A stretch of DNA of 64,000 bases from a bacterium. Its GTDB lineage: Bacteria; DUMJ01. Position 1 is the first letter of the stretch. Each line of letters starts with the position of its first letter. The translations under genes and the position numbers were made by a program. Where the stretch lies: positions 31,441 through 95,440 of the forward strand of contig DUMJ01000042.1 of the NCBI GenBank assembly GCA_012839925.1, in the 5' to 3' direction. Shown here in pieces: positions 5,767 through 61,831 of the stretch. The notes below the pieces were generated by a model. The model had not been told where the DNA came from. It was given only the letters and a program-made list of their open reading frames with translations, and ran no database searches.

Positions 5767-5835
5767 GGTTATATTATATATTATGTTTGAGGCTATTGCA
5801 ATATTAAAATTTTTTGATAAAATAATATATGTTAC

Positions 5836-5911: not shown

Positions 5912-5920
5912 CTTAGTAGA

Positions 5921-6006: not shown

Positions 6007-6018
6007 GTAGATAGAGAT

Positions 6019-6094: not shown

Positions 6095-6160
6095 ATAGAA
6101 GATTATTCTCGATAGCGTATGCTATCGAGTTATTTTTTATTAATATTTATGGAGGTATTG

Positions 6161-16698: not shown

Positions 16699-16699
16699 G

Positions 16700-17974: not shown

Positions 17975-17977
17975 TAT

Positions 17978-19059: not shown

Positions 19060-19061
19060 AG

Positions 19062-20430: not shown

Positions 20431-20431
20431 T

Positions 20432-22243: not shown

Positions 22244-22258
22244 GAAAGGAGTAGACCT

Positions 22259-37862: not shown

Positions 37863-39023
37863 ATGGAAGTACCTATTGGTAAAGGTAGATGGGCAACAAG
37901 GTCTTATGGTTTTGAAGAGATATCCATAGTACCAGGGGATATAACCGTTGACCCTGAACTGGTAGATGTTTCTCTGGAGATAGGTGATTTTAAATTTGAA
38001 ATTCCGATAATTGCAGCAGCTATGGATGGGATTGTAGACCCAAACTTTGCTGAAGTGATGGGAAAACTTGGAGGATTGGCGGTACTGAACCTTCAGGGAA
38101 TCCAGACCAGGTATGAAAATCCTAAAGAAGTACTGGAGGAAATCGTCTCTGCTCCTCCTGAAAAGGCTACTGAAATAATGCAGAAGATTTATAAGGAACC
38201 GGTAAGGGATGAGCTGGTATATAAAAGGATAAAGGAGATGAAAGACTCAGGGATTGTTACTGCCTGTTCTTCTATCCCCCAGGAAGCAGAGAGAATGGTA
38301 AAGATAGCTGTAGAGGCAGGAGTTGATATCTTTGTAGTCCAGTCTACGGTTATTACCGAGAGACATAAGGCTAAGAGTTATACCCCATTAAGTCTGGCAA
38401 AATTCACCAGAGAAACATCTGTTCCTGTTGTGGTTGGTAATGTTGTAAGCTTCAGTGCTGCCACGGAGTTGTTTGAGACAGGGATAAGCGGTATTCTGGT
38501 TGGAGTTGGTCCAGGTGGAGCCTGTACTACCAGGCAGGTCCTGGGGATAGGTGTGCCACAGGTAACTGCTATTGCAGATGTGGCTTACGCCAGGGATATC
38601 TTTTACCATAGAACCGGGAAATACATACCTGTGATAGGGGACGGAGGGATGAATACAGGTGGAGATATAGCTAAAGCTATTGCCTGCGGTGCAGATGGAG
38701 TAATGCTGGGGCAGGCACTGGCTCGAGCTGAAGAAGCCTTTGGTAGAGGCTATCACTGGGGTATGGCTATGAGTCACTCTGCTCTCCCGAGGGGAACAAG
38801 GGTACATACTGGGACAACAGGAACACTTAAGGAGATACTCTTTGGTCCGGCTAAAACGGATGATGGGACTCAGAATCTTGTTGGTGCATTGAAGAATTCT
38901 TTAGGGGTCTGTGGTGCTCTGAATCTCAAAGAGATGCATCAGGTAGAGATTGTTATAGCTCCTTCTATAAAGACTGAAGGTAAGATACTTCAACAGGCTC
39001 AAAAAGTGGGAATGGGAAAATAA
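37863..39023 (+). CDS. IMP dehydrogenase/GMP reductase family protein lacking CBS subdomain
   Basis: 386 aa; catalytic loop GVGPGGACTTRQVLGIGVPQ; no Bateman insert. Confidence 0.65.
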   Translation: MEVPIGKGRWATRSYGFEEISIVPGDITVDPELVDVSLEIGDFKFEIPIIAAAMDGIVDPNFAEVMGKLGGLAVLNLQGIQTRYENPKEVLEEIVSAPPEKATEIMQKIYKEPVRDELVYKRIKEMKDSGIVTACSSIPQEAERMVKIAVEAGVDIFVVQSTVITERHKAKSYTPLSLAKFTRETSVPVVVGNVVSFSAATELFETGISGILVGVGPGGACTTRQVLGIGVPQVTAIADVAYARDIFYHRTGKYIPVIGDGGMNTGGDIAKAIACGADGVMLGQALARAEEAFGRGYHWGMAMSHSALPRGTRVHTGTTGTLKEILFGPAKTDDGTQNLVGALKNSLGVCGALNLKEMHQVEIVIAPSIKTEGKILQQAQKVGMGK

Positions 39024-39206: not shown

Positions 39207-39250
39207 TTGACAAAAATCTTTAATACTTTATACTGTTAATATTAACAGTA
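39207..39250 (+). promoter_or_regulatory. Promoter (TTGACA-16-TATACT) overlapped by perfect 20-bp palindrome TACTGTTAATATTAACAGTA (candidate LacI-family operator)
   Basis: -35 39207..39212, -10 39229..39234; palindrome 39231..39250; a third half-site ATTAACAG at 39281..39288 just before the regulator ATG. Confidence 0.55.
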
Positions 39251-39291
39251 TTTAGCTGGAATAATTTAATTTGTGAGGATAACATTAACAG

Positions 39292-40326
39292 ATGGCTACT
39301 ATAAAGGATGTTGCTGAGAAAGCTGGAGTATCGGTAATGACCGTCTCCAGGGTGATAAATAATAATAAATATGTGAGCCAAGAGACAAGAGAAAAAGTAG
39401 AGCAGGCGATGGAAGAACTTGGTTATATTCCCAACGCTCTGGCTCATGGATTGATTACCAAGAAGACTCATGTACTAGGCTTGATAGTCTCCGATATTAC
39501 TAACCCTTTCTTTACAACGATAGCTAGAGGAGTAGAAGATACAGCTATTAAGAATGGATTTAACACTATACTTTGCAATTCAGATGAAGATGTAGAGAAG
39601 GAAGAGAGATATATAGAACTTTTGCTAAGAAAAAGAGTAGAGGGAATTATTCTTAGCCCTGCAGACTGTGATAAGAGGAGAAGAATAGAACAGATAATAT
39701 CCAGAAAGATCCCGCTGGTTCTTATAGATAGACGTATCAGTGGACTACAGATTGACCGTGTATATAGTGATAGTATAAATGGAGCTTATGAGTTAACAAA
39801 ATATCTAATAGATCTTGGGCATAGAAGAATAGGCATTATAATAGGACCAAGAAGGATATCTACAGCAGTAGATAGAGTGGAAGGATATAAAAGAGCTCTT
39901 CAGGAAGAGGGGATTTCAATGGAAGAAGAGCTGATAAGATGGGGAAAGAAATATAGTAGAGAAGATGGATATTTAAATGCAATAGAGTTATTAACTCTTG
40001 AGCACCCTCCTACTGCGATATTTGGAGGAAATAGACTGATAACGGTGGGTATACTTAGAGCTATTAGAGAGTTGAAGCTTAGAATTCCTGATGATATTTC
40101 TGTGGTTTCTTTTGATGAGGTGGAAGATATATCGGTAACAAATCCATTTCTTACTGTGATAAGCCAGAATTCGTATGTTATGGGAGTGGTAGCTACCGAA
40201 CAGCTTTTAGAAAGAATAAGGGGGAATAATAAATCTCCGGAAGACCTGCAGGAAATTGTATTACAGCCAAGATTAGTTATAAGAAAGTCCTGTGGGAGCC
40301 CAAAGGAGGAGGTGATGAAAGAATAG
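39292..40326 (+). CDS. LacI-family transcriptional regulator
   Basis: N-terminal HTH MATIKDVAEKAGVSVMTVSRVINN, periplasmic-binding-fold effector domain; 344 aa. Confidence 0.9.
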   Translation: MATIKDVAEKAGVSVMTVSRVINNNKYVSQETREKVEQAMEELGYIPNALAHGLITKKTHVLGLIVSDITNPFFTTIARGVEDTAIKNGFNTILCNSDEDVEKEERYIELLLRKRVEGIILSPADCDKRRRIEQIISRKIPLVLIDRRISGLQIDRVYSDSINGAYELTKYLIDLGHRRIGIIIGPRRISTAVDRVEGYKRALQEEGISMEEELIRWGKKYSREDGYLNAIELLTLEHPPTAIFGGNRLITVGILRAIRELKLRIPDDISVVSFDEVEDISVTNPFLTVISQNSYVMGVVATEQLLERIRGNNKSPEDLQEIVLQPRLVIRKSCGSPKEEVMKE

Positions 40327-40391
40327 GGCTAGATGGCTGTGGAGATAAAAGCAGATTATCGAAAATATTTTATTAGAGGAGGTATTAAAAG

Positions 40392-42386
40392 ATGGAGAAG
40401 TTTTTGAGGATTTTATTGTTAATATCATTGTCTTTGTTCCTAGTCTCTGAGCCAATATCTTTTGTGTATGCTCAGAAAGGATTGTCGATAGGACAGTATG
40501 AAATTAAAGAGTACGAGCAGTTAACAAGTAAAAAAATAACCACAATTAAAGAGGCACCAATGCTGTCAGAACTGGTAAAGCAGGGTAAACTTCCTCCAGT
40601 AAAGGAGAGACTTCCTGAAGAGCCATTAGTAGTGGAACCTTATGAAGAGACAGGACAATATGGCGGGACCTGGCATATATCCGAACCAATTAACTATAAT
40701 ATCTATCAACTTCGACATGAGTTGCTTTTAAGATTTGATGATCCAGCTGCCAGAGGAGAAAAAGGGCAACCTGTGATTCGCCCTAATCTAGCGGTGAATT
40801 GGCAGATTTCAAAGGATGCTAAGATTTATACAGTCCACCTTAGAAAAGGAGTAAAATGGTCGGATGGAGGACCGTTTACTGCGGATGACCTTATATTCTG
40901 GTACGAAGATGTACTTCTTAATAAGGATCTTACTCCTATTATACCAGAATGGTTTCGAACTAAAGATGCGGTAGGAAAGGTAGAAAAGATAGACCAGTAT
41001 ACCGTTAAATTTACTTTTCGTAATCCAAACCCTATCTTTTTAGAAACTCTATACTCTAATTCCAGTGAGCCAATAGTCAGTTATCCTAAACATTACTTGA
41101 AACAGTTCCATCCTAAATATACCTCAGCAGATGACCTTAATAAAGTATTGAAGTCAGAAGGATTTTCTGCATGGAATCAGCTGTTTTTACAGAAAGCAGA
41201 CTATAAGGTAAATCCTGACTTGCCTGTACTGGTCCCCTGGCAGCTTAAGACAAAGCCTGGTCAACCGGTTCAAATTATGGAGAGGAATCCTTATTACTTT
41301 AAAATAGATCCAGCTGGAAACCAATTACCCTATATAGATAGGATAGCACTTGAAATAGTTTCTGATGCAAATGTTGCTCTTATGAAAGCCTTGTCAGGCG
41401 CAACAGATTGGGGATGCCATTTTATTGGTGGACTAAATGATCTGCCAGTCTTAATAGAAGGCGCAGAAAAAGGAGGTTATGATGTAGCTATTAGATACAC
41501 GTTGGATGGTATAACGGCAGTAGCTCTGTTTATCAATCAAAATGTTAAGGATTCGCAGCTTCGTAAGCTCTTCCGTGATAAACGCTTTAGATTAGCCTTA
41601 TCTCTTGCGGTTGATAGAGATGCAATAAGTAAGATTCTTTATGCTGGACAGAGTGAGAAAAGACTTTTGGTGATGCCTGAAAGTTCTCCTTATTATTCTC
41701 CAGAACAACTTAAATCTGCATCAAAATATGTAGACTATGATCCCAAAAAAGCTAACCAATTGTTAGATCAGTTGGGTCTTACTAAAAGAGATAAAAATGG
41801 TATTAGACTCTTTCCGGATGGGACTCCGGTTGAGATACTGGTGGAATATCGTCATTCACCTGGTTCCTATCAGGGTGATACTCCGGAATTAATAGCTAAG
41901 TATTTAACTGATGTTGGAATTAAAGTAGCCTTGAAATATGAAAGCTCATCACTACTTTCCACAAGAACTGCTGCCAATGAACATCAAGTAGTAGCGATTA
42001 ACATAAGTGGACCCTGGCATTCTATACTAGGATATGGATTTCTTCCGAGTTCAAATCCTACAACTCTATACTGGGCTCCTCTATGGTATAGATGGTTTAT
42101 TTCTAACGGTAAAGAAGGAGAAGAGCCTCCTGCAGTCTTTAAGAAGCTTGTAACATTAGGGGATGGAATCTTAGGAGGACTTACTATTGAAGCTAGAAGA
42201 AAGATGGTTACAGAGATTCTTAGACTCCATAACGAGAACCTCTGGATAATACCTATAACCACTTACCCAGGTGAAGCTCATGTAATAAAGAAGAATTTCA
42301 GGAATACTCCCAGAAAAGTTACCGGTTTACAGAATTTTTATCACCGTCAACCTCTATATCCTGAGCAGTTCTTTATAAAGCAATAA
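40392..42386 (+). CDS. ABC transporter substrate-binding protein, family 5, secreted (paralog 2)
   Basis: 664 aa; signal peptide; shares N-terminal motif with the SBPs at 29964 (-) and 54245 (+). Confidence 0.8.
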   Translation: MEKFLRILLLISLSLFLVSEPISFVYAQKGLSIGQYEIKEYEQLTSKKITTIKEAPMLSELVKQGKLPPVKERLPEEPLVVEPYEETGQYGGTWHISEPINYNIYQLRHELLLRFDDPAARGEKGQPVIRPNLAVNWQISKDAKIYTVHLRKGVKWSDGGPFTADDLIFWYEDVLLNKDLTPIIPEWFRTKDAVGKVEKIDQYTVKFTFRNPNPIFLETLYSNSSEPIVSYPKHYLKQFHPKYTSADDLNKVLKSEGFSAWNQLFLQKADYKVNPDLPVLVPWQLKTKPGQPVQIMERNPYYFKIDPAGNQLPYIDRIALEIVSDANVALMKALSGATDWGCHFIGGLNDLPVLIEGAEKGGYDVAIRYTLDGITAVALFINQNVKDSQLRKLFRDKRFRLALSLAVDRDAISKILYAGQSEKRLLVMPESSPYYSPEQLKSASKYVDYDPKKANQLLDQLGLTKRDKNGIRLFPDGTPVEILVEYRHSPGSYQGDTPELIAKYLTDVGIKVALKYESSSLLSTRTAANEHQVVAINISGPWHSILGYGFLPSSNPTTLYWAPLWYRWFISNGKEGEEPPAVFKKLVTLGDGILGGLTIEARRKMVTEILRLHNENLWIIPITTYPGEAHVIKKNFRNTPRKVTGLQNFYHRQPLYPEQFFIKQ

Positions 42387-42395
42387 ATTTAATTT

Positions 42396-42437
42396 CCCCC
42401 AGACAATTCAAGACTAATAGCTAGATTGTCTGGGGGG
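42396..42437 (+). terminator. Hairpin CCCCAGACAAT-loop-ATTGTCTGGGG after SBP gene
   Basis: 11-bp stem, ~19-nt loop, followed by AT-rich tract; likely partial terminator/attenuator before dehydrogenase gene. Confidence 0.45.
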
Positions 42438-42466
42438 ATATTATTACTTGAAAGGAGTTGAAAATT

Positions 42467-43480
42467 ATGTCTAATAAACCTAAAGTTCTATTAGCAATGC
42501 ATAGAAACCTTGGAGAACAGATCTTTAACAAAAAAGATCTCGAGTATTTTAAGACATTTGTAGAAGTTAACAATGTTGGTTCTCTTCCAGAAAAGATAGA
42601 TGAGTCATTTATAAAAGATAATATAAGAGGTGTAGATATCTGTGTTACCTGTTGGGGGACCCCTCCTTTTGGTAAAGAGATTCTAGATAATGCTGATAAT
42701 TTAAAGCTTATAGCACACTCTGCCGGTTCTGTTAAACCCATAGTAACAGATTATGTATGGGAAAGAGGTATTAGAGTAACTAGTGCTGCCCCGGCTATAG
42801 CAGTTGCGGTAGCAGAGATGACTTTAGGGCTTATGATTATATCTTTACGGAGGATATTTCACTTTAATGAACTTACTCATAAAGGGTTTTGGAAATCAGA
42901 TGAAGAGATATCCAAGACTAGGTCCCTCTACTGTGTTACAGTAGGTGTAGTGGGTGCCAGCAATGTAGGTAGAAATGTTATAAAACTCTTAAAGAACTTT
43001 CAGGTAGAGATACTCCTTTATGACCCCTATGTAACTCAAGAGGAAGCAGATAAACTTGGAGTAAAACTTGTATCTTTAGAAGAACTTATGTCAAAATCAG
43101 ATGTAGTATCTCTTCATGCCCCAAGTATCCCTGAGACATACCATATGATAAATAAGAATAATATAAGTCTCTTAAAGCCAGGCTCCATAATTATAAATAC
43201 TGCAAGAGGTTCATTGATCGATGAAGCCTCTCTCATAGAGAGGCTTGCTAGGGGAGATATCTTTGCCTGTCTAGATGTTACAGACCCTGAACCTCCAGAT
43301 ATCAATAGTCCATTGAGGAGATTACCCAATGTCATTCTTACTCCACATATAGCAGGAGGAAATTCAGTGACAGATAGATGGAGACAGGGTAGATATATTA
43401 TAGATCAGATATATAAATTTATTACCCAGGGCACTATGGATTATGAGGTTACGAAAGATATGCTTACGAGAATAGCTTAG
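42467..43480 (+). CDS. D-isomer-specific 2-hydroxyacid dehydrogenase family protein (NAD-binding)
   Basis: GxGxxG VGVVGASNVGRNV, catalytic-domain layout; RBS AAAGGAG 9 nt before ATG 42467. Confidence 0.75.
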   Translation: MSNKPKVLLAMHRNLGEQIFNKKDLEYFKTFVEVNNVGSLPEKIDESFIKDNIRGVDICVTCWGTPPFGKEILDNADNLKLIAHSAGSVKPIVTDYVWERGIRVTSAAPAIAVAVAEMTLGLMIISLRRIFHFNELTHKGFWKSDEEISKTRSLYCVTVGVVGASNVGRNVIKLLKNFQVEILLYDPYVTQEEADKLGVKLVSLEELMSKSDVVSLHAPSIPETYHMINKNNISLLKPGSIIINTARGSLIDEASLIERLARGDIFACLDVTDPEPPDINSPLRRLPNVILTPHIAGGNSVTDRWRQGRYIIDQIYKFITQGTMDYEVTKDMLTRIA

Positions 43481-43489
43481 GACTTTAAG

Positions 43490-44230
43490 ATGAGAGAAAA
43501 GACTCTTAAGCTTAACCTCAGAAGTAGAGTAAGAGTAGCCGAAGATATCTGGGAAGAGAGGATAGATGCGAAGAGTTTTAATATAGATAAAACAGCTATA
43601 CTTCTCTGTGATATATGGGATAATCACTGGTGCAGTGGAGCTAAAAAAAGAGTAGACATACTTGCCCCCAGGATTAATAGAGTAGTCAGCGTAGCAAGAG
43701 AAAATGGGATTCAGATCATACATTCTCCATCAGATACTATGGATTTTTATAAGGGTACTGTGTATAGAAAGAGAATCTTAGAGGTACCCAGAATAGAACC
43801 AGTGGAGTTATTGTCTTTTTATGAGCCTCCTCTTCCCATAGATGACTCAGATGGGGGATGTGATTCTGGAGAAAAACCCTGGTATAAAGCCTGGACAAGA
43901 GAACATCCAGCGATAGAGATAAGAGGAAACGATGTGATATCTGATAATGGTATAGAAATATACAGCTTTCTAAGATACTTAAACATAGATACCCTTATCT
44001 ATATAGGTTTTCACACAAATATGTGTATACTCAAGAGACCTTTCGGAATAAGAAACATGAAAAGATACGGTATAAACTGCATTTTGGTTAGAGACCTTAC
44101 AGATGCTATGTACAATCCCGATATGCCTCCATACGTATCTCATGAAAAAGGTACTGAGTTAGTAATTCAGCATATAGAAAAATATCTCTGCCCCACTATA
44201 TTGAGCGAAGACTTGGAGAAATTATATTAG
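43490..44230 (+). CDS. Isochorismatase-like cysteine hydrolase family protein (tentative)
   Basis: 246 aa; AILLCDIWDNHWC...K...C arrangement reminiscent of isochorismatase/CSHase fold. Confidence 0.35.
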   Translation: MREKTLKLNLRSRVRVAEDIWEERIDAKSFNIDKTAILLCDIWDNHWCSGAKKRVDILAPRINRVVSVARENGIQIIHSPSDTMDFYKGTVYRKRILEVPRIEPVELLSFYEPPLPIDDSDGGCDSGEKPWYKAWTREHPAIEIRGNDVISDNGIEIYSFLRYLNIDTLIYIGFHTNMCILKRPFGIRNMKRYGINCILVRDLTDAMYNPDMPPYVSHEKGTELVIQHIEKYLCPTILSEDLEKLY

Positions 44231-44241
44231 GAGGGATAAAA

Positions 44242-45036
44242 ATGGAAAAGAAATATGTCTTTTCGGTATTTACAAAACCATGGCAGAATATGCCGGTGAA
44301 GGAATTGGGGGAGTTTGTAAGTAAACTGGGTTTTGATGCCATCGAGTTTCCTGTAAGACCAGGTTATCAGGTAGAACCTGAGAATGTAAAAGAAGGATTA
44401 CCGAAACTTGCCAGAGAGTTAAAGAGTTTTGGAATAGATATAGCCAGTATAGCAGGACCTACAGATGAGGATACCTTTATAGCCTGTGCAACAGCCGGGA
44501 TACCTGTAATCAGGGTTATGTGTAGAGTAGAAGAAGATGGCTATCTTGCATCTGAAAAGAAGGCAAGAAAGGACCTTGAATCGCTTCTACCTTTATGTGA
44601 AAAGTACAATGTAAAGATAGGAGTTCAGAATCACTATGGTAAGTTTGTGTCTCCAAATTCAGCTGGACTTATGAGACTTGTAGAGAAATTTGATCCAAAT
44701 TATATAGGAATTATCTGGGATGCAGCTCACAATGCACTGGGTGGAGAAGAGCCAGAGATGGGACTTGATATAGTATGGTCGCATCTCTGTATGGTTAATC
44801 TAAAAAATGCTTTTTGGAGAAGAAAGACAGGACCTGAATTAGAAGCAGAGTGGGAAATATACTGGACCAGCGGGAAGCAAGGTCTTGCCAGCTGGAGAAG
44901 GGTTGCTGAATATCTTAAGAAGAGGAACTACAGAGGAGTTATATGTTTAACTGCAGAGTATACAACTAAAGACGAGGTGGATAGACTGATAGCTGAAGAT
45001 ATAAAATTTGCCCGATCACTATTTTATGAGGATTAA
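44242..45036 (+). CDS. Sugar phosphate isomerase/epimerase (xylose-isomerase-like TIM barrel)
   Basis: 264 aa; GFDAIEF...typical AP-endonuclease-2/TIM-barrel pattern. Confidence 0.6.
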   Translation: MEKKYVFSVFTKPWQNMPVKELGEFVSKLGFDAIEFPVRPGYQVEPENVKEGLPKLARELKSFGIDIASIAGPTDEDTFIACATAGIPVIRVMCRVEEDGYLASEKKARKDLESLLPLCEKYNVKIGVQNHYGKFVSPNSAGLMRLVEKFDPNYIGIIWDAAHNALGGEEPEMGLDIVWSHLCMVNLKNAFWRRKTGPELEAEWEIYWTSGKQGLASWRRVAEYLKKRNYRGVICLTAEYTTKDEVDRLIAEDIKFARSLFYED

Positions 45037-45037
45037 G

Positions 45038-46006
45038 ATGGAAGACTCAAAGGTTAGAATCGCCTTTATAGGTTGTGGAGTAATGGCTAATAAAGTTCAT
45101 TATCCATCTCTAACATCTTTTTCTGATGTGGAGATTGTTGCCATATGTGATGTAGATACAGAAAGACTTAATACTACTGGCGACAAATATAATATCGAGA
45201 AGCGATACGCAGATTATAAAAAGATGATAGAAGAAACTTCCCCCGATGCTGTATACGCCATAGGTCAACCACATATAATGTACGATATCTGGATGTGGTG
45301 TCTAAAGGAGGGACTTAATTTATACATAGAAAAACCTATGGGTATAACTATACATCAGGCAAGAATGCTTGCCTATATGGCAGAGAAGAAAGGTTGCATT
45401 ACTCAGGTAAGTTTCCAAAGAAGAGCTGTTCCGTTATTAGTAAAACTTAAAGAGGAGTGTCTAAAACATGGACCTGTAGTTCATGCGGTCTGTGAATTTT
45501 ATAAATATAACATAGAACCATATTTAGAGGCTAGAGACCATATGATGGATGACGGTGTGCATGCAATAGATACACTCAGATGGATATGCGCAGGAGAAGT
45601 AAAGAGGATACTCAGTGTAACCAGGAACGTTTTAGTCCCTGATATCAACCTTATATCAGCAATACTTGAATTTGATAATGGTTCTATCGGAGTTATGATA
45701 AATAGCTGGACAAGTGGAAGAAGGATATTTAGAGTCCAGATGCATGCTCCAGGGATATGGGTTGAAGCGGACCCTGAGGATAAAGGACGTTTATATATAA
45801 ATGGTGATACAAATGGGATTGAGTATGATACAAAAGAGGTGGCAGGAAGTAGCGAGTTCTATGTCTATGCAGGCTTTCAGGCTAAGAACAGAGAATTTAT
45901 CGATTGTTTAAAACTAAAGAAACAGCCAGGCTCAAACTTTTCTGACGCCCTTAAGACTATGGAGGTAGCAGAAAAAATATTGGCAAAGGCGCTATTGGAG
46001 GATTAA
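45038..46006 (+). CDS. Gfo/Idh/MocA family NAD(P)-dependent oxidoreductase
   Basis: VRIAFIGCGVMA Rossmann N-terminus; ATG 45038 after RBS. Confidence 0.8.
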   Translation: MEDSKVRIAFIGCGVMANKVHYPSLTSFSDVEIVAICDVDTERLNTTGDKYNIEKRYADYKKMIEETSPDAVYAIGQPHIMYDIWMWCLKEGLNLYIEKPMGITIHQARMLAYMAEKKGCITQVSFQRRAVPLLVKLKEECLKHGPVVHAVCEFYKYNIEPYLEARDHMMDDGVHAIDTLRWICAGEVKRILSVTRNVLVPDINLISAILEFDNGSIGVMINSWTSGRRIFRVQMHAPGIWVEADPEDKGRLYINGDTNGIEYDTKEVAGSSEFYVYAGFQAKNREFIDCLKLKKQPGSNFSDALKTMEVAEKILAKALLED

Positions 46007-46008
46007 AT

Positions 46009-47409
46009 ATGGAGTATGTAAAGCCGGTAAAGATAGAATTATACTTTATACCAGTTAAAACCCGTATTCCGCTTAAATTTGGACCAGAAATTTTGACATC
46101 TGTTAACTGTGCCAGGGTCCATATGTTTGTCTCTGATAATAAAGGTAAGGTTATGGATGGCTGGGGAGAGACACCTCTGAGTGTTCAGTGGGGATGGCCA
46201 AGCAGTATAAGTTATGATACAAGAGACAGAGATATGAAAGAATTTTCTAAGTTATTAGCCAATGAATGGGTAAATTTGAATCTAGCAGGACATCCTGTCG
46301 AGATAGGGGACATATTCTTGAAATATGCCCTGCCCCTTACTGTTATAAGGTTTAACTCCAGCCTGAAGGAGAGCAGTGAAAACCTGCCATGGTTAGCAGC
46401 ACTGATATGTAACTCTGCTTTTGATATAGCATTTCACGATGCATATGCAAAGTATCTGGGATTACCAGTATACAGGATATATAGTAAACAGTTTATGGAG
46501 AATGACCTGTCACATTATCTAGAACCTGCTAATGATACTCAGGTCTCATTTAAAGATAAATATATAGAAGATTATCTACGAATACCACCAAGAGATAGAC
46601 TTTTAGCGTGGCATCTGGTAGGAGGTACAGACCCTATAGATAGAGATGAACTTACCGGTAACGAGCCAGATGACGGTTATCCTGTCCTTCTAGAAGACTG
46701 GATAAAACAAGATGGACTTAGGTGTCTGAAGATAAAACTTAGGGGAAACGATTTTAGCTGGGACTACAGTAGAATAGTTAAGGTGGCAAGGACAGGAATA
46801 AAAAATAATGTCCTGTGGTTTTCCATAGACTTTAACTGTACAGTAAAAGACCCAGGGTATGTGGTAGAGATGCTGGATAAACTTTTATACGATGAACCTG
46901 AGATTTATGCTAGAACCCTCTATATAGAACAACCATTCCCCTATGATCTGGAATCAAACCCCATTGATGTGAGATGCATATCTGGTAAAAAGCCGATCTT
47001 TATGGATGAGAGTGCCCATGACTGGAAGCTCATACTTTATGGTAGAGAGCTGGGATGGAGCGGAGTAGCGCTGAAAACCTGCAAGACACAGACATCTGCC
47101 CTATTATCTTACTGTTGGGCAAAGAGTTATGGAATGAGTGTTATGGTTCAGGACCTTACCAATCCAATGTTAGCCCAGATACCACATGTATTACTGGCAT
47201 CATATATAGATACCATTATGGGGGTAGAGAGTAATTCCATGCAGTTTTATCCCTCAGCGTCAGAACCAGAAGCAAAAGTCCATCCAGGGCTATATAGAAG
47301 AAGAGATGGGATGCTGGATCTGAGTTCTATAAAGGGTCCTGGATTTGGTTATCGTATAGAGGAGATAAAGAGAGAATTACCTGAGCCTGACTTTATAATA
47401 GGAGAATGA
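46009..47409 (+). CDS. Enolase-superfamily (mandelate racemase/muconate lactonising enzyme subgroup) protein, putative sugar-acid dehydratase
   Basis: 466 aa; KxK (LKIKLRG), metal ligands in FSIDFN, YIEQP, FMDES. Confidence 0.55.
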   Translation: MEYVKPVKIELYFIPVKTRIPLKFGPEILTSVNCARVHMFVSDNKGKVMDGWGETPLSVQWGWPSSISYDTRDRDMKEFSKLLANEWVNLNLAGHPVEIGDIFLKYALPLTVIRFNSSLKESSENLPWLAALICNSAFDIAFHDAYAKYLGLPVYRIYSKQFMENDLSHYLEPANDTQVSFKDKYIEDYLRIPPRDRLLAWHLVGGTDPIDRDELTGNEPDDGYPVLLEDWIKQDGLRCLKIKLRGNDFSWDYSRIVKVARTGIKNNVLWFSIDFNCTVKDPGYVVEMLDKLLYDEPEIYARTLYIEQPFPYDLESNPIDVRCISGKKPIFMDESAHDWKLILYGRELGWSGVALKTCKTQTSALLSYCWAKSYGMSVMVQDLTNPMLAQIPHVLLASYIDTIMGVESNSMQFYPSASEPEAKVHPGLYRRRDGMLDLSSIKGPGFGYRIEEIKRELPEPDFIIGE

Positions 47410-47419
47410 GGATTTCAAT

Positions 47420-48481
47420 ATGAATAGATTGGAGAAAGATAAGGTTCAGTTTGGTATCATAGGTTGTGGAGCCATAGCCAACATACATGCCATGGCGATT
47501 AAGGCTATAGAGAATGCTGAACTAAAGGCAGTTGCTGATGTTAATATAGATAATGCGCGGAAGTTTGCTGAGAGGCATAATATAAAAGAATATTACTCAG
47601 ACTACAGAGAGCTACTTAAAGATAGAGATATAGACATAGTGAATATATGCACACCCAGCGGGTTAAGGGAAGATGTAGCGATAGCATCTGCCAGGGCTGG
47701 GAAACATATAATAGCAGAAAAACCTGTAGAGGTAACTGTAGAGAAGATAGATAGAATTATAGCTGAGTGCAAAAGACATAACGTAGCTCTAGCGGGTATA
47801 TTTAATTATAGATACAATAAGAACTACAGGATTATATATGACACAATCCAGAAGGGTAGATTTGGGAGACTTATCCTGGGAGATGTCTATATAAAGTGGT
47901 ACAGGGATAAGGAATACTATACCAGTTCTGGGTGGAGAGGGACCTGGAAATTTGATGGTGGTGGGGCATTGATGAATCAATCGATCCATTTTATAGACCT
48001 TCTCCAGTGGTATATGGGACCAGTTGAAAGTGTGAAAGCCTATACTGCTCAGGCTGTACATAGATATATAGAGACAGAAGACCTGGGTATAGCCATAGTG
48101 AAGTTTAAGAATGGGGCACTTGGAGTGATCGAAGGGAGTACTGCAATCTATCCTGGTTTATACGATAGGGTGGAGATACATGGAGAGAACGGAAGTGTAT
48201 TGATAGAGGATAGTAGAATAGTCAGATGGGAATTCAGGGATCAGGAACCTTTAGACCAGAAAATAATAGAAGAGAAGGGGTTAGAGACTTTCGATCTGGG
48301 TAGCTCAAGAGATCCAATGGAAATCCCATATGAATTACATAAAAGAGAGATAGAAGACATAATAAATTCTCTGAAAGAGGGCAAGAATCCATCTATAGAC
48401 GGTTACGAGGCGAGGAAAGCGGTAGAGATAATTACTGCTATTTACAGGGCGGGTGAAACAGGAGAAGAAGTCAGACTGTAG
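47420..48481 (+). CDS. Gfo/Idh/MocA family oxidoreductase
   Basis: VQFGIIGCGAIANIHA N-terminus; 353 aa. Confidence 0.8.
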   Translation: MNRLEKDKVQFGIIGCGAIANIHAMAIKAIENAELKAVADVNIDNARKFAERHNIKEYYSDYRELLKDRDIDIVNICTPSGLREDVAIASARAGKHIIAEKPVEVTVEKIDRIIAECKRHNVALAGIFNYRYNKNYRIIYDTIQKGRFGRLILGDVYIKWYRDKEYYTSSGWRGTWKFDGGGALMNQSIHFIDLLQWYMGPVESVKAYTAQAVHRYIETEDLGIAIVKFKNGALGVIEGSTAIYPGLYDRVEIHGENGSVLIEDSRIVRWEFRDQEPLDQKIIEEKGLETFDLGSSRDPMEIPYELHKREIEDIINSLKEGKNPSIDGYEARKAVEIITAIYRAGETGEEVRL

Positions 48482-48619
48482 AGTGAAATGATATATGGAT
48501 AAATAGAGTATCAAAACGGGGGCTCCTGAGAGAGTCCTTTAATTTGTGAATTATTTAGAGCAATAGCTGTATAATAGTATAGAAAAAGTTAATAAAGGGA
48601 TGATAGTGAGGTTAAAACT

Positions 48620-49411
48620 ATGAATATATATGTTCTGGTAAAACAGGTTCCTGCCACCGATAAGGTTAAAATAGATGAGACAACAGGTACTATGAAAAGG
48701 GAAGAAGTTGAAGCGGTTATCAATCCTCTGGATCTCTATGCTATTGAGGGGGCTTTGCGGATAAGAGAGATTTATAATGATAGCCATATAACTGCAGTAT
48801 CTATGGGTCCGTCCAAGGCAGAAGAGGTCTTAAAAGAGGCTATTTCTATGGGGTGTGACCATGGAATACTTCTCTCAGACAGGGCATTTGCAGGGGCAGA
48901 TACCTGGGCTACCTCGTATACTATAGCCAGTCTTATAAAAAAGATGGGAGATTTTTCTCTTATCATTACAGGGGAGAAAGCTACTGATGGAGAAACCGGG
49001 CAGGTTGGACCAAGTCTTGCCGGACAATTGAATCTTCCGATAGTGACCTATGTCGGCAGTATAGTAGAAGTAAGGGATGATTATATCGTGGTGGAAAGAG
49101 AGATTGAATATGGAACCGAGGTTGTTAGAGTAAAATTACCGGCGGTTATATCTGTGGTGAAAGCTATAGGTGAGCCAAGACTTCCAACCCTCAGAGGTAA
49201 GATACGGGCTAGAGAGACCAGGATAGATGTGTACAATCTTGAAAGTCTGGGACTTAATAGAGAAGAGGTAGGGCTGTCAGGTTCTCCTACAAGAGTGGTG
49301 AAAGTTTTTTATCCCAGGATATCAAGGGAGGGGAAGAAGGTTAAGACTTCAACTCCTGATGAAGCGGTAAATAGTATTATACAATTTCTGGAGATAAGGG
49401 GAATCCTATGA
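48620..49411 (+). CDS. etfB: Electron transfer flavoprotein beta subunit
   Basis: MNIYVLVKQVPATDKVKIDE... 263 aa. Confidence 0.9.
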   Translation: MNIYVLVKQVPATDKVKIDETTGTMKREEVEAVINPLDLYAIEGALRIREIYNDSHITAVSMGPSKAEEVLKEAISMGCDHGILLSDRAFAGADTWATSYTIASLIKKMGDFSLIITGEKATDGETGQVGPSLAGQLNLPIVTYVGSIVEVRDDYIVVEREIEYGTEVVRVKLPAVISVVKAIGEPRLPTLRGKIRARETRIDVYNLESLGLNREEVGLSGSPTRVVKVFYPRISREGKKVKTSTPDEAVNSIIQFLEIRGIL

Positions 49412-50397
49412 GTAAAGATGTCATTATATTAGGAGAAACAAAGGGAGAAAAAATACATCCTGTAACATATGAGTTACTGGCATGGGGCAAAGGGCTTTCG
49501 GAAAAACTAAATTCTAATCTATCAGTTGTAATCCTCGGGAAAAATCTGGAAGGCGTTGAGGAGATTATATACTACGGAGCTGATAAAGTATACTATTTTG
49601 AACATTCAGCCCTGGATATATTTAATGTTGAGATATACTCTGAGGTATTGGTTCCATTTATAAAGAAGATGCAGCCGGAGATCGTCCTGGCAGGAGCCAC
49701 CACTACAGGAAGAACTATTATGCCCTATCTGGCAGGAAAACTCAAGACAGGATTAACAGCAGATTGTACCTCTCTGGATATAGAAGAAAAAACGGGGTTA
49801 TTATTGCAAACCAGACCAGCTATAGGTGGGAATGTACTGGCTACCATAAAAACACCACTTCACAAACCACAAATGGCGACGGTAAGACCCAAGGGGAAAA
49901 GACCACTGGAGAGAGATCCAAACCGAAAAGGTGATATAGAGATTATAAGACCAGAAATCAATATAAATTCGAGAATAGAAAGACTTGACTTTAAGACAAG
50001 AGAGGAAGAGGTCTCGCTGGTAGATGCAGAAATTGTAGTATCAGGAGGAAAGGGATTAAAAGACCCACAAAACTTCTCAATGTTATTTGAAATCTCTAGG
50101 ATACTTGGGGCTGCGGTGGGAGCTTCCAGATCGGTAGTGGATATGGGATGGGTAGAATATCCTCATCAGGTTGGTCTGAGCGGGAAGACGGTCAATCCCA
50201 GGGTATATATTGCTATTGGGATATCAGGAGCGGTACAACATCTGGCTGGAATGATGAACTCTGAAAGTATAATTGCGATAAATAAAGATCCGGAAGCACC
50301 AATATTTCAGGTGGCAGACCTGGGAATAGTAGGAGACGCATTGGAAATACTCCCTGTTCTGAAGAAGAGACTGGAGGAGAGAAAGAGAAATGTTTAA
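49408..50397 (+). CDS. etfA: Electron transfer flavoprotein alpha subunit
   Basis: 329 aa, C-terminal FAD-binding ...IAIGISGAVQHLAGM... Confidence 0.9.
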   Translation: MSKDVIILGETKGEKIHPVTYELLAWGKGLSEKLNSNLSVVILGKNLEGVEEIIYYGADKVYYFEHSALDIFNVEIYSEVLVPFIKKMQPEIVLAGATTTGRTIMPYLAGKLKTGLTADCTSLDIEEKTGLLLQTRPAIGGNVLATIKTPLHKPQMATVRPKGKRPLERDPNRKGDIEIIRPEININSRIERLDFKTREEEVSLVDAEIVVSGGKGLKDPQNFSMLFEISRILGAAVGASRSVVDMGWVEYPHQVGLSGKTVNPRVYIAIGISGAVQHLAGMMNSESIIAINKDPEAPIFQVADLGIVGDALEILPVLKKRLEERKRNV

Positions 50398-51793
50398 TAA
50401 AGTCGATGAAAGAATTATAGATAACCTGATAGGGATCTGTGGGACGAATGATGTACTTATAGAAGAGGAAGAATTGGAAAGATATTCCCAGGATGAATCT
50501 GGTAGATTCTATGCCCATATGCCAGAAGTAGTAATCAGAGCCGAAAATACAGAAGAGATATCTAAGGTCCTGAAACTTGCCAATGAAAATCTCATACCGG
50601 TAACCCCGAGAGGTGCAGGAAGCGGGGTAGTAGGGGGAGCGGTCCCTGTATATGGTGGGATACTACTTTCTCTTGAGAAGATGAATCAGATCTTGGAGAT
50701 AGATAAGGTCAACCTGGTGGCTATAGCTGAACCGGGAGTGGTAACTAACGATCTCTGCAAAAAAGTGGCTGAAGAAGGTTTATTCTATCCAGGATATCCG
50801 ATGAGTGTGGAGACGAGTTTCCTGGGGGGAAATGTGGCAACAAATGCTGGTGGAAGCAAGGTAATAAAGTATGGAAATACTGGACACCATATCCTGGGGC
50901 TTGAAGTAGTTTTTCCCTCAGGAGAGGTCCTTCCCCTTGGTGGAAAGAGAAGAAAAGACTCAAGTGGATATAACCTTTTAAATCTTATGGTTGGCTCAGA
51001 AGGAACCCTTGGGGTATTCAGTAAGATCACTGTAAATCTTATACCTCTTCCACTCTATACCGTAGACCTCCTTGTTCCTTTTTCAACAGTAGAATCTGCT
51101 ATACAAACTGTCCCAGAGGTTATAAGAGAAAGTAAGGTTTTACCCTGCGCTGTTGAGTTTCTCGATAGACTATCAGTAGAGCTGGCGAGTATATATACAA
51201 AGTGCAGATGGGAGTATCAGGAACAGGCAGAGGCATATCTTCTCATTCAATTTGATGGGAACAGTAAAGTGCAGTTAGAAGAATCGTATATAAGAGCTGG
51301 AGAAGCCTGTTTAAAGTTTGGAGCATTAGAGGTCTTTGTGGCAGAAAATCCATTTGCATCTGAGAGATTATGGAGACTCAGGAGAAATTATCTGGAGGCT
51401 ATAAAAGCGGTGGATCCATATGTAGTTACTGGAGATGCAGTGGTCCCTACCTCTTTAATTCCCAGAATGTTAAAGAGAATAAAGGAGATAGGAGATGAAT
51501 ATGGAACAGATATACTATGTGCAGCACATGCAGGTGATGGAAATATACACTCTGCTCCCCTAAGACCTGAGAATATTCCTCCAGAAGAATGGCAATCAAT
51601 ACAGGAAGAGATTCTAGATAAGATAGCGGTAGAGGCTAGCTCACTTGGGGGAGCTCCAAGTGGAGAACATGGAATAGGGTATGTAAAAAAGAAGGCGTTG
51701 TATATATCAAAGAAGAGAGAGATTCCTGTGATGAGAGAGGTCAAAAAGGTCTTTGACCCTAACGGGATTATGAATCCAGGGAAGATCTTCTAG
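50390..51793 (+). CDS. FAD-linked oxidase (GlcD/D-lactate dehydrogenase family)
   Basis: 467 aa; FAD_binding_4 motif PRGAGSGVVGG; coupled to etfBA (overlapping starts). Confidence 0.85.
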   Translation: MFNKVDERIIDNLIGICGTNDVLIEEEELERYSQDESGRFYAHMPEVVIRAENTEEISKVLKLANENLIPVTPRGAGSGVVGGAVPVYGGILLSLEKMNQILEIDKVNLVAIAEPGVVTNDLCKKVAEEGLFYPGYPMSVETSFLGGNVATNAGGSKVIKYGNTGHHILGLEVVFPSGEVLPLGGKRRKDSSGYNLLNLMVGSEGTLGVFSKITVNLIPLPLYTVDLLVPFSTVESAIQTVPEVIRESKVLPCAVEFLDRLSVELASIYTKCRWEYQEQAEAYLLIQFDGNSKVQLEESYIRAGEACLKFGALEVFVAENPFASERLWRLRRNYLEAIKAVDPYVVTGDAVVPTSLIPRMLKRIKEIGDEYGTDILCAAHAGDGNIHSAPLRPENIPPEEWQSIQEEILDKIAVEASSLGGAPSGEHGIGYVKKKALYISKKREIPVMREVKKVFDPNGIMNPGKIF

Positions 51794-51897
51794 ATAATAT
51801 ATTCCATTTTTTCTTTTTAAGAAAATATAGGTACTGTCAATAGTCTGTAAAAATGTCAGGGGAAGGAAATAAAACATATGAGATTAATTTGTATCCC

Positions 51898-51938
51898 GTA
51901 GGGGCAATTCATGAATTGCCCCTACAATTTCGTCTTTT
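51898..51938 (+). terminator. Rho-independent terminator of etf/oxidase operon
   Basis: 28-bp perfect palindrome GTAGGGGCAATTCA|TGAATTGCCCCTAC followed by AATTTCGTCTTTT. Confidence 0.7.
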
Positions 51939-56406: not shown

Positions 56407-57618
56407 ATGGACCGATATGTGTTAATTGATCCTGAAGAACTTCGGAAATCCCTTCAGTTAGCCTGCAAATGGCTTGTTGAAATAGCTCAAGTTAAAACTG
56501 AAGGGCTTGCTATTGAGAAGAACTCAAAAAAACATCTCCATCAAACTTGGAAGGGATCTATACGAGGAGAGTATAGTGTAGCTAAGAATGAATGGGATTT
56601 CTTCTGCCCTGTTTGGCACACAGGACAAGCCATAAAAGCACTTGTTGCAGCTTATAAGGTTTTGGGAGAAAACAGACTCCTTCAAGCGGCAATGTTTTCA
56701 GCTGATTTCTTAGGTAGGGAACGTGTCTCAGAAAAAGGGAATGAGCATCACGGACTTATATTTGCATTTGAGGATAGGGGAGATATGGTTAATACATCGG
56801 CAATTTTAGAGTGTTTAGATGGACTGATAAGCCTAAGTGAGGTTTCTGGAGATATTTCCTACTGGGGATGGGTTGTTGATGCTCTTAAATGGGTTGCAAA
56901 GAGAGCTTATATTACGGATGAAGGTCTATTTAGAGATTGTTTTTCAATAAAGACCTGGCAATTCGAGCCTCCGCCCTGGAGAAATCCACAGGGGTGGCCT
57001 GGCAGACCACTTCTAGATGATGGAGTGTTTCTTAAAGCGTATCATTATACAGGTAACCCTGAGTTTCGCCGAATCTTCTATGAAACCGCTAATCGACTTC
57101 TTAAAGAAGAGGAACCGCCAGGCAATTGGATCCGATTTACCCCTTGTAATGTTGAGACTGGTAGTATACACCCTCGACATGCCTATTGGTGGGGAAGACC
57201 AATGCTTATGGCCTATAGGGATAGTGGTGAAGCAAAGTATCTTGAGTGTGCTATAAGGTCTGGGCAGTGGTATATAGATGCACAGAGAGTAGATGGCGGA
57301 CTTTTCCGCGGAACATATCGGAATTTTAAGACAGATTCTTTTGGACATGCTACAAGTGGGATTGCCTGCGCTTCAATTTTGTGGCATGAACTCTGGGAGA
57401 TAACTGGTGATGATCGTTGGCTTAAGTCGATAGAGAAGGCTATGGCATATTGTATGAAAATGCAGTTCCGTAACACTAAGGACTCCAACTTACAAGGAGC
57501 TATTCTGGAAAAGGTCCTCCCTCCTGATGGTACGGACAGTTCTCCTTACCATATAAGAGATCTCGGAACGATATTCTTTATTCAAGCAGCATCAAGGATT
57601 TTATATGATACGATTTAA
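56407..57618 (+). CDS. Hypothetical protein, possibly (alpha/alpha)6-toroid glycoside hydrolase/epimerase-like
   Basis: 403 aa, no signal peptide; W/aromatic-rich repeats consistent with six-hairpin fold; assignment tentative. Confidence 0.3.
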   Translation: MDRYVLIDPEELRKSLQLACKWLVEIAQVKTEGLAIEKNSKKHLHQTWKGSIRGEYSVAKNEWDFFCPVWHTGQAIKALVAAYKVLGENRLLQAAMFSADFLGRERVSEKGNEHHGLIFAFEDRGDMVNTSAILECLDGLISLSEVSGDISYWGWVVDALKWVAKRAYITDEGLFRDCFSIKTWQFEPPPWRNPQGWPGRPLLDDGVFLKAYHYTGNPEFRRIFYETANRLLKEEEPPGNWIRFTPCNVETGSIHPRHAYWWGRPMLMAYRDSGEAKYLECAIRSGQWYIDAQRVDGGLFRGTYRNFKTDSFGHATSGIACASILWHELWEITGDDRWLKSIEKAMAYCMKMQFRNTKDSNLQGAILEKVLPPDGTDSSPYHIRDLGTIFFIQAASRILYDTI

Positions 57619-57681
57619 GAAGATTTAAAATGGGTAGATATTGCATGAAGATAGTTTTAGGACAAAAGGAGGAGATAAAAA

Positions 57682-59613: not shown

Positions 59614-59856
59614 TCCTTTCCGCAAAACTGAATATAGCGTTATTGAAGTGTTAGAGATTGCTCCTATAAGAGCTATTAACTACTTCCATTGAAGAGGAGC
59701 GAGAGTTGGAAAAAGAAGAGCATAGAAATTGTAGGGGAGCAAAAGAAATTAGGCCATAGGGGAGGGGTGAATAATAAAATTATAGTTCTTTAGCTTGTGA
59801 CTATAAGATTAGAGTTTCTGAAAAACTTGGTATATAGAATAAGGAGGTTTCCTTTT

Positions 59857-60918: not shown

Positions 60919-60929
60919 GAGGTATTATT

Positions 60930-61823: not shown

Positions 61824-61831
61824 GAGGACAT

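Follow-up and report, generated by a model that had tools for sequence, protein, structure and literature searches.

A stretch of 64,000 nucleotides from a bacterium of the lineage DUMJ01 (assembly GCA_012839925.1, contig DUMJ01000042.1, positions 31,441 to 95,440), referred to here as the window, harbors 11 co-directional open reading frames at 39292–51793, all confirmed, which begin with a gene for a LacI-family regulator, continue with genes for putative sugar-processing enzymes, and end in etfB and etfA, encoding the subunits of an electron-transferring flavoprotein (Etf), and lctD, encoding a LctD-like 2-hydroxyacid dehydrogenase. The contig measures 101 kb and derives from a biogas-fermenter metagenome (ENA ERZ925055). 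Coordinates follow the numbering of the whole 64-kb window, and features lie on its forward (+) strand unless indicated otherwise; families were called with Pfam and equivalogs by the NCBIfam cut-offs. With a probability of roughly 60%, the locus represents two adjacent, separable units, namely, a sugar operon (Unit A, 39207–48540) and a general lactate-oxidising module (Unit B, ~48568–51925). A first-pass annotation of the same DNA had named the families of all 11 genes, with each of which Pfam agreed, and had read the locus as a single catabolic one in which the trio etfB-etfA-lctD oxidises a sugar-derived 2-hydroxyacid. The gene content was thus confirmed and the interpretation was in part supported; no support was obtained for the view that the trio serves the sugar locus specifically as its last step.

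Separability of the trio from the sugar genes

The synteny survey covered flanks of up to 10 kb on each side of the related loci (designated by L numbers) at tblastn thresholds, so that relatives may carry the other unit elsewhere in their genomes. The genome scan with LctD recovered 68 loci, and EtfB, EtfA, and LctD were contiguous and in the same order in 31 loci other than the window (37–88% LctD identity). Twenty-eight of these, at 46–88% identity, belong to unclassified metagenome-assembled genomes (MAGs) from hot springs and digesters, Dictyoglomota, Thermotogota, Atribacterota, Synergistota, and Caldisericota, and the remaining three, which are more distant (37–46%), to a Lachnospiraceae, a Eubacterium, and a Sphaerochaeta MAG. 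In none of the 31 loci is the trio flanked by an ortholog of the 2-hydroxyacid dehydrogenase, hydrolase, TIM barrel, Gfo, or enolase-like gene of Unit A; the only related matches there were weak Gfo-family proteins (23–30% identity), encoded on the opposite strand in three of the loci, and a 2-Hacid_dh protein of 33% identity downstream of the trio in L021. Conversely, no Etf or LctD homolog was detected in any of 80 metagenome loci carrying an ortholog of the enolase-like gene (57–80% identity). The closest relatives of Unit A (75–86%; L008, L009, and L081–L083) are mosaics, all of which end without the trio: L008, L082, and L083 carry the 2-hydroxyacid dehydrogenase, TIM barrel, GfoA, and enolase-like genes, L009 the TIM barrel, GfoA, enolase-like, and GfoB genes, and L081 the LacI, family-5 binding protein, hydrolase, TIM barrel, and GfoA genes, with L080 containing the binding protein and hydrolase genes alone. 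The TIM barrel gene was always paired with that of GfoA in these relatives.

In the loci closest to the window by LctD identity (L013, L015, and L016; 85–88%), the trio stands alone amid unrelated genes with a divergent B12/radical-SAM gene upstream. A PIG-L deacetylase gene lies 3′ of the trio in L014 and L017, as in the window, accompanied by a ROK gene in L014 and by a second SBP_bac_5 gene in L017. As these downstream neighbors are shared with the window, it is the upstream junction that varies. The trio is a mobile, self-contained module of many genomic contexts, predicted to oxidise lactate.

The end of the GfoB gene and the start of etfB are separated by a 138-bp non-coding gap, and the GC content is ~0.40 across the window without a compositional break at the locus. 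Within the gap, the terminator scan placed a weak terminator-like hairpin at 48518–48539 (8-bp GC-rich stem, ~−10 kcal/mol), followed by the T-rich tract TTTAATTT; alignment with L009 downstream of GfoB, made to test the hairpin as the native terminator of the operon, showed no meaningful conservation. An extended −10 element, TGTATAAT, at 48568–48575 was identified by sequence match as the putative promoter of etfB-etfA-lctD. In L013, L015, and L016, all loci with a stand-alone trio, the counterpart of this element in the alignment of the etfB upstream regions is GCTGTTAAAAT, which follows TTTACA and is the predicted promoter element of the stand-alone trio. A strong intrinsic terminator (12-bp stem with 6 GC pairs; region z = −2.45) is predicted at 51898–51925, closing the trio. 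The LacI operator was searched for before etfB and before the 2-hydroxyacid dehydrogenase gene and was found at neither place, being restricted to the promoter/leader region upstream of lacI. The first-pass annotation had deduced a function in the sugar pathway from the embedding of the trio among sugar genes. This deduction is not supported, as none of the related loci fetched combines the two units, the trio has a promoter-like element of its own, and no operator precedes it; same-strand adjacency was over-read as a functional link.

Recruitment of the trio into a sugar operon is nevertheless seen in Thermotogota, where six loci (L025, L026, L027, L030, L033, and L035) carry, in this order, genes for a FGGY kinase, a LarA-family racemase, and an aldehyde dehydrogenase and then etfB, etfA, and lctD, so that the trio closes an apparent L-rhamnose operon. 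In the complete genome of Athalassotoga saccharophila NAS-01 (L027; AP019551, 47–11407), these are preceded by genes for a rhamnosidase of the GH106-like type and for an L-rhamnose isomerase (NCBIfam score 557 against a cut-off of 531), the kinase is rhamnulokinase-like, and the aldehyde dehydrogenase is of the AldA type (847 against a cut-off of 500). The Thermotogota LctD proteins are 59–60% identical to that of the window, with an identical active-site signature. The predicted route would lead from rhamnose through L-lactaldehyde, L-lactate, and D-lactate to pyruvate, with an Etf-coupled last step, and the end of the operon can be read as converting lactaldehyde to pyruvate under anaerobic conditions. 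When the literature was searched for a link between rhamnose operons and LctBCD, no account of this arrangement came up. The window differs from these operons, in that L-rhamnose isomerase, the AldA-type dehydrogenase, and the LarA-family racemase, present in theirs, are all lacking from its sugar operon.

These Thermotogota operons, in which the trio clade by sequence does become part of sugar operons, belong to a group of observations that weigh against two independent units and favor the terminal-step model of the first-pass annotation. In that model, Unit A would produce D-lactate or another D-2-hydroxyacid through Gfo oxidation, through enolase-type dehydration or elimination and cleavage, or through release of a lactyl substituent, and LctD-EtfAB would oxidise the product with nicotinamide adenine dinucleotide (NAD+) and reduced ferredoxin. 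The genes share one strand across a short gap with a weak hairpin, the folding energy of which alone is no different from that of shuffled sequences, and transcription of Unit A may well continue into etfB. The promoter and terminator calls are consensus matches, and the scan yielded no excess over shuffled sequence. A 2-hydroxyacid product of Unit A is plausible in view of its D-2-hydroxyacid dehydrogenase, which resembles phosphoglycerate dehydrogenase (PGDH), and of its carboxylate-activating enolase-superfamily enzyme; the absence of LarA from the window would suit a pathway giving the D-isomer directly. Set against these points are the survey counts (0 of 31 trio loci with Unit A orthologs, 0 of 80 enolase-like loci with the trio, and no trio in the five closest Unit A relatives), the missing operator before etfB, the promoter-like element common to stand-alone trios, and the fact that an aldolase, an aldehyde dehydrogenase, or another lactate-forming enzyme is not recognisable in Unit A. 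The terminal-step model is accordingly rated as unlikely, and in the two-unit reading the trio would serve at most as a sink for sugar-derived lactate.

The etfB-etfA-lctD module

The trio consists of etfB (small subunit; 48620–49411; Pfam ETF), etfA (large subunit, 329 aa; 49408–50397; ETF plus ETF_alpha), and lctD (50390–51793; FAD_binding_4 plus FAD-oxidase_C), the last encoding a dehydrogenase dependent on flavin adenine dinucleotide (FAD). The overlapping start and stop codons described by the first-pass annotation were found as a 4-bp ATGA between etfB and etfA and as an 8-bp overlap between etfA and lctD. In the two-unit reading, these translationally coupled genes with their own promoter and terminator would encode a lactate dehydrogenase/EtfAB complex that performs flavin-based electron confurcation. 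Oxidation of (D-)lactate would take place at the FAD/metal site of LctD, and the electrons would pass to the FAD of EtfA and on to a second FAD in EtfB, where they would be joined by those of reduced ferredoxin for the reduction of NAD+. We infer the activity, stereospecificity, and ferredoxin dependence of Unit B from homology.

The Etf is predicted to be of the bifurcating type. EtfB matched CarD (2.6e-62), 4kpu_B (2.2e-55), and LctB (2.2e-54) far better than human ETF-beta (7e-24), and EtfA matched bifurcating Etf-alpha chains at 1e-74 to 1e-82 (7KOE_B, 4.9e-82; 4KPU_A, 7.3e-82) as against 3e-45 for the human protein; the matches to the five structurally characterised bifurcating Etfs (CarDE, Acidaminococcus fermentans, Clostridioides difficile, LctBC, and Thermotoga maritima) ranged from 1e-50 to 1e-82. 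Among the Etfs of lactate clusters, one position separates the two types: bifurcating members have a glycine there, which is Gly123 in A. fermentans, and canonical ones a bulky residue (PMC12630350, 2025). Gly124 of the window EtfB, in the sequence TDGET, aligns with Gly123 of A. fermentans and is kept in 32 of 32 orthologs, and there should therefore be room for a second FAD in EtfB. The motifs RPxFGG, GxxSPTxV, and RxGV have been described near the bifurcating FAD of group-2 Etfs (PMC10734219). The arginine of RPxxGG is conserved in EtfA (RPAIGGN) and GSPTRV is present in EtfB. The earlier proposal of a bifurcating, LctBCD-like Etf is in agreement with these scores and with the glycine; a lack of the bifurcating-FAD signature in EtfB had been named there as part of a refutation, and the outcome favors the LctBCD-like reading.

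Several features count against a confurcating lactate dehydrogenase. RxGV reads REEV in EtfB, and R-x-E-x in most of the clade. EtfA aligns only from residue 83 of LctC and thus lacks the N-terminal ferredoxin domain on which confurcation depends in Acetobacterium woodii; its first 40 residues contain no cysteine, as in nearly all orthologs. Removal of this [4Fe-4S] ferredoxin domain from LctC abolishes confurcation in A. woodii, and Bcd-EtfAB complexes bifurcate without such a domain (PMC9232219). The domain is therefore taken as a mark of the A. woodii enzyme and not of the mechanism, because other proven bifurcating Etfs lack it. Three pocket positions of LctD also differ from those of A. 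woodii LctD (G329→R, E344→T, and Y386→A). Finally, the LarA-family neighbors of the LctD orthologs score below the lactate-racemase cut-off, and that of L023 is closest to the general 2-hydroxyacid racemase family.

A canonical, non-bifurcating Etf that passes the electrons of LctD onward, as in the Ldh-ETF-Bcd system of Fusobacterium nucleatum, would account for the missing relay domain and for REEV in place of RxGV, and lactate dehydrogenase/ETF systems with a canonical ETF do exist (PMC12630350). The retained diagnostic glycine and scores better by 30 to 40 orders of magnitude to bifurcating Etfs make it highly improbable; in addition, the trio has neither Bcd nor another acceptor encoded next to it, and the ferredoxin domain is dispensable for bifurcation in Bcd-EtfAB (PMC9232219).

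Among solved structures, the best relative of the window LctD was A. woodii LctD (7qh2_C, 1.1e-100), followed by glycolate oxidase (9qgz, 3.3e-74) and then by mitochondrial dehydrogenases for D-lactate and D-2-hydroxyglutarate; with 1.7e-51, the human D-2-hydroxyglutarate dehydrogenase, too, is clearly homologous. A. woodii LctD employs His423 as catalytic base, His377, His384, and Glu422 as metal ligands, and Arg328 for carboxylate binding (PMC9232219). Residue-by-residue alignment showed these to be kept in the window LctD as His427, His380, His387, Glu426, and Arg331, respectively, and Asp349 was conserved as well. The ten-position pocket signature, R-R-L-T-D-H-H-A-E-H, was the same or had one substitution in all orthologs of at least 58% identity. 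Orthologs of LctD also adjoin racemase genes: L023 and L024 carry a GntR/FCD regulator gene, etfB, etfA, lctD, and a LarA-family racemase gene in this order, and in L034 a racemase gene likewise lies downstream. Lactate, most likely D-lactate, is a well-supported prediction for the substrate, because orthologs sharing the signature adjoin LarA and, in Thermotogota, rhamnose genes with AldA.

Two other identities of LctD were considered and rejected. As a canonical glycolate oxidase it scored 378.5 bits with TIGR00387 against a cut-off of 567.9, GlcE and GlcF were absent, and its neighbors encode the Etf subunits and a ROK regulator; this speaks against one of the refutations that the first-pass annotation had named for its proposal. 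As a D-2-hydroxyglutarate dehydrogenase, it differs in pocket signature from the SerA-paired homologs, a comparison set that was assigned by gene context only: the distant homologs in which a GlcD-like gene accompanies a 2-Hacid_dh gene read R-E-S-K-D-H-H-N-E-H, unlike the clade of the window.

The more general proposal that the trio oxidises some D-2-hydroxyacid other than lactate (D-2-hydroxyglutarate, glycolate, D-malate, or D-glycerate), for example in the recycling of D-2-hydroxyglutarate, draws on the sugar operon. WlbA/WbpB- and PGDH/SerA-type dehydrogenases form D-2-hydroxyglutarate by reoxidising NADH with 2-oxoglutarate, and in the window GfoB is near 3q2k/3q2i and the 2-hydroxyacid dehydrogenase is near PGDH. 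The altered pocket, with its extra Arg332, the racemase of L023, and the homology to the human D-2-hydroxyglutarate dehydrogenase point in the same direction. The proposal is nonetheless very unlikely, as the SerA-linked signature (R-E-S-K...N) is not shared by the window protein (R-R-L-T...A), the GlcD cut-off is missed without GlcE or GlcF being present, LctD outscores every other solved relative by a wide margin, and the Thermotogota orthologs lie beside an AldA-type lactaldehyde dehydrogenase and a LarA-family racemase.

None of the accessory lct genes (GntR regulator, lactate permease, and lactate racemase) is present in the window. Rnf subunits, NuoE/NuoF-like proteins, and hydrogenase-like proteins are encoded elsewhere in the window, which fits an anaerobe with ferredoxin-based energy metabolism. 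They form a redox cluster at 15832–24356 comprising a CBS/HATPase protein, a sensory-type FeFe-hydrogenase-like protein (16700–17974), a NuoE-like protein (19062–19523), a HATPase (19520–20062), and a NuoF/HydB-like protein (20432–22243), immediately followed by RnfD and two RnfA/E-type subunits; RnfG and RnfB were not recognised in this cluster, an unusual combination. The LctBCD-like clade without the ferredoxin domain spans phyla of thermophiles and anaerobes (Dictyoglomota, Thermotogota, Atribacterota, Synergistota, and Caldisericota) and could show whether lactate confurcation needs the relay domain.

The LacI-headed sugar operon

Unit A would be a LacI-autoregulated operon for a sugar derivative, its substrate being captured by a secreted family-5 binding protein and processed by a cysteine amidohydrolase-like protein, a TIM-barrel protein, two Gfo dehydrogenases, a PGDH-like dehydrogenase, and an enolase-like enzyme, a chemistry that we infer from the protein families. 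The first gene, lacI (39292–40326), encodes a regulator with a LacI helix-turn-helix domain (92 bits) and Peripla_BP_1/3 domains, and reached no NCBIfam equivalog. It is preceded by a predicted near-consensus sigma-70-type promoter at 39207–39234 (TTGACA-16-TATACT; 11 of 12 consensus positions), the −35 element of which coincides with the start coordinate of the first-pass annotation (39207), and a similar TTGACA/TATACT pair precedes the lacI ortholog of L083. A perfect 18-bp palindrome, ACTGTTAATATTAACAGT, at 39232–39249 overlaps the −10 region and is unique in the window, and a second, degenerate copy is present at 39277–39290, just 5′ of the lacI start codon. The palindrome is the probable LacI operator because its core, TGTTAATGTTAACA, recurs 5′ of the orthologous lacI of L083 and at two places 5′ of that of L081; the candidate site upstream of lacI was also given as TGTTAATATTAACA. 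With a helix-turn-helix and periplasmic-binding-fold regulator and a palindromic operator at the promoter, the operon is probably autoregulated, which sustains the LacI control assumed by the first-pass annotation. The gene upstream (37863–39023), encoding a GuaB3-family IMP-dehydrogenase-related protein, lies outside the locus.

The second gene (40392–42386) encodes a 664-aa family-5 solute-binding protein (SBP_bac_5, 214 bits) with an N-terminal signal peptide. No permease genes were seen near it, leaving a lone secreted binding protein, and no ABC permease or ATPase genes were found anywhere in the 64-kb window. It is one of three SBP_bac_5 paralogs of 650–664 aa in the window, at 29964–31958 (−), 40392–42386 (+), and 54245–56203 (+), the neighbors of which differ (GH31, the present locus, and ROK/PIG-L, respectively); the paralog at 40392–42386 was checked and is secreted. 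Directly after this gene, a strong hairpin at 42394–42438 (−26 kcal/mol, z = −4.1; equalled by 0 of 200 shuffles) may act as an attenuator or a transcript stabiliser, and may set the ratio of binding protein to enzymes or end the lacI–SBP transcript.

The D-isomer-specific 2-hydroxyacid dehydrogenase (42467–43480, with an alternative start at 42458; Pfam 2-Hacid_dh) is PGDH/glyoxylate-reductase-like. Its best solved relative was the phosphoglycerate dehydrogenase 1wwk (7.5e-45), and all its NCBIfam scores were below the cut-offs. The next gene (43490–44230) encodes a divergent isochorismatase-like cysteine hydrolase with a weak Pfam Isochorismatase match (33 bits) and no sequence relative among solved structures. 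Residues D41 and C179 were invariant, and the AlphaFold2 (AF2) model (predicted local distance difference test score, pLDDT, 93.8) had triuret hydrolase, RutB, and biuret hydrolase as its top folds, along with N-carbamoylsarcosine amidase, such that the protein is a probable amidohydrolase by its modeled fold. The hydrolase gene is paired with that of SBP_bac_5 in L080 and L081. At the slot of the hydrolase, L083 carries instead a carbon-nitrogen hydrolase of the nitrilase superfamily (4601–5506) and a URO-D/MtaA-like gene, behind a SBP_bac_1 ABC transporter. The substrate of Unit A is suggested to carry an amide or carbamoyl group, because two unrelated C-N hydrolase folds fill the same slot.

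The xylose-isomerase-like TIM barrel protein (44242–45036; AP_endonuc_2, 74 bits) matched nothing in NCBIfam, and no solved structure is related to it in sequence. It is followed by GfoA (45038–46006; 322 aa from the ATG, with an alternative TTG start at 45008), a Gfo/Idh/MocA oxidoreductase weakly similar to inositol 2-dehydrogenase and DgpA, by the enolase-like gene (46009–47409), and by GfoB (47420–48481), a second Gfo/Idh/MocA oxidoreductase by Pfam. The first-pass annotation had placed the two Gfo genes together before the enolase-like gene; the actual order is Gfo, enolase-like, Gfo. The best solved relatives of GfoB were 3q2k (2.6e-60) and 3q2i (2.1e-57), deposited as oxidoreductase/dehydrogenase, followed by glucuronide 3-dehydrogenase, 6a3f, and DgpA. 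We take 3q2k and 3q2i to be WlbA UDP-GlcNAcA 3-dehydrogenases and 6a3f to be, presumably, levoglucosan dehydrogenase. GfoB thus resembles sugar 3-dehydrogenases, its listed relatives oxidising sugars at C3 if these assignments are right. NCBIfam yielded an equivalog for none of the Unit A enzymes, and identification as IolG (169 against a cut-off of 355), as levoglucosan LGDH (126 against 650), or as xylose dehydrogenase, likewise below its NCBIfam cut-off, was rejected.

The 466-aa enolase-like protein gave a weak match to MR_MLE_C (36 bits), no solved chain at E ≤ 0.01, and no NCBIfam match. It has more than 8000 homologs, at ~60% identity across phyla, from Dictyoglomota-like bacteria to Planctomycetes. 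The invariant residues K241/K243 (KVK 241–243), D274, E307, D333, and K356/K359 form a set like that of the muconate-lactonising enzymes (MLE), their assignment to barrel strands being putative. The AF2 model (pLDDT 89) has the enolase fold (Foldseek probability 1.0; template modeling score 0.6–0.78 on target), with 12–19% identity to dipeptide epimerases, muconate-lactonising enzymes, hydroxyproline-betaine epimerases, and acid-sugar dehydratases alike. The hallmarks of the superfamily are a capping domain and a modified TIM barrel with three acidic metal ligands and general-base lysines. On these features, the protein is placed in a large subgroup of the enolase superfamily that has no characterised relative, and it would have to abstract the alpha proton of a carboxylate, with dehydration as only one possible outcome. 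Of the earlier label "enolase-superfamily dehydratase," the superfamily therefore stands, and the dehydration is an assumption. Partnership with Gfo and TIM barrel genes extends across phyla, and the share of the 80 loci with an enolase-like/TIM/GfoB-like triad lies between roughly one quarter and 40%; a GfoB ortholog is present in 32 of the 80 metagenome loci, and in most of these it follows the enolase-like gene at a distance of ~2.3 kb. In L010 (2638–4059) and L011 (1354–2775), an ortholog of 68% identity lies near octopine-dehydrogenase-like, Lar_N, Fumerase_C, and 2-hydroxyacid dehydrogenase genes, a context that hints at a hydroxy-acid as the substrate of the family.

The non-phosphorylative deoxyhexose pathway of the LRA type employs an enolase-superfamily dehydratase and has pyruvate and lactate as its products. 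It was considered for Unit A and rejected, as none of its SDR, FAH, and aldolase components is present there. A literature search for a cluster of enolase-superfamily, Gfo, and xylose-isomerase-like genes found no paper. That Unit A, with the new enolase-superfamily subgroup at its center, represents an undescribed and common pathway by which an N-substituted or carboxylated derivative of a sugar is oxidised, the D-2-hydroxyacid product of which is handed to the ferredoxin-domain-less LctD-EtfAB, seems decidedly doubtful; if true, it would tie sugar-acid catabolism to ferredoxin/NAD+ energy coupling. The operon nevertheless contains three conserved enzyme families without a characterised relative, which are targets for function discovery.

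Further genes of the window and of related loci were noted beside these families. A URO-D/MtaA-like gene, of methyltransferase-like type, recurs beside Gfo/TIM genes: in the window at 59797–63805 (downstream of the locus, together with genes for an AXE1-like esterase and a TIM barrel), in L083 at 5516–6658 within the sugar operon, and, near the Planctomycete-type enolase-like genes, in L004 (17518–18543) and L006 (20221–21258). At 56407–59613, 3′ of the downstream SBP_bac_5 gene, are a 403-aa protein with faint GH88/GH76 similarity and a 643-aa protein matching only an Ig domain of the Rha78A-like type, which may be novel glycoside hydrolases. The open reading frames at 664–1821 (385 aa), 18310–19059 (249 aa), and 32173–32814 (213 aa) had no Pfam match at E ≤ 1e-5.

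Comparison with known systems

Pathways that oxidise, eliminate, hydrate, and reduce are known for levoglucosan (LgdA/B1/B2/C; PMC7676230), in the O-/C-glycoside beta-eliminases (PMC10628242), and in a gut alternative glycosidase cluster (bioRxiv 10.1101/2024.03.25.586180). Their logic is the nearest known to that of Unit A, although Unit A passed no test of membership. The 3-keto-sugar pathways of the Lgd, Dgp, and BT2156–2160 types comprise a sugar 3-dehydrogenase, a TIM-barrel eliminase, a hydratase, and a reductase. These systems combine a Gfo dehydrogenase with an AP_endonuc_2 TIM barrel, as does Unit A, but the scores of the window proteins were far below the cut-offs, and no DUF1080 hydratase is present. 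To our knowledge, an enolase-superfamily enzyme, a cysteine hydrolase, and a 2-hydroxyacid dehydrogenase are not among the components of the known pathways. The enolase-like protein shares its fold, the KxK motif, the D/E/D residues, and the later lysine with the MLE subgroup (dipeptide epimerases, MLE, and o-succinylbenzoate synthase) and the acid-sugar dehydratases of the superfamily, from which it differs in being ~100 residues longer and in having Gfo and TIM barrel genes as partners.

Unit B resembles LctBCD of A. woodii (7QH2; PMC9232219) in its subunit families, gene order, translational coupling, and catalytic and metal site. It differs in that the lctA regulator, lctE permease, and lctF racemase genes of A. 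woodii have no counterpart in the window and in that EtfA is without the ferredoxin domain; moreover, CarD and the Bcd-associated Etfs are as close to the window EtfB as LctB is. In the length of EtfA (~330 aa) and the absence of a ferredoxin domain, the module is similar to the A. fermentans Etf (4KPU), C. difficile Bcd-EtfAB (5OL2), and T. maritima EtfAB (7KOE). The partner of the Etf distinguishes it from these systems, being LctD-like in the window and an acyl-CoA dehydrogenase or the EtfCX quinone reductase in the others.

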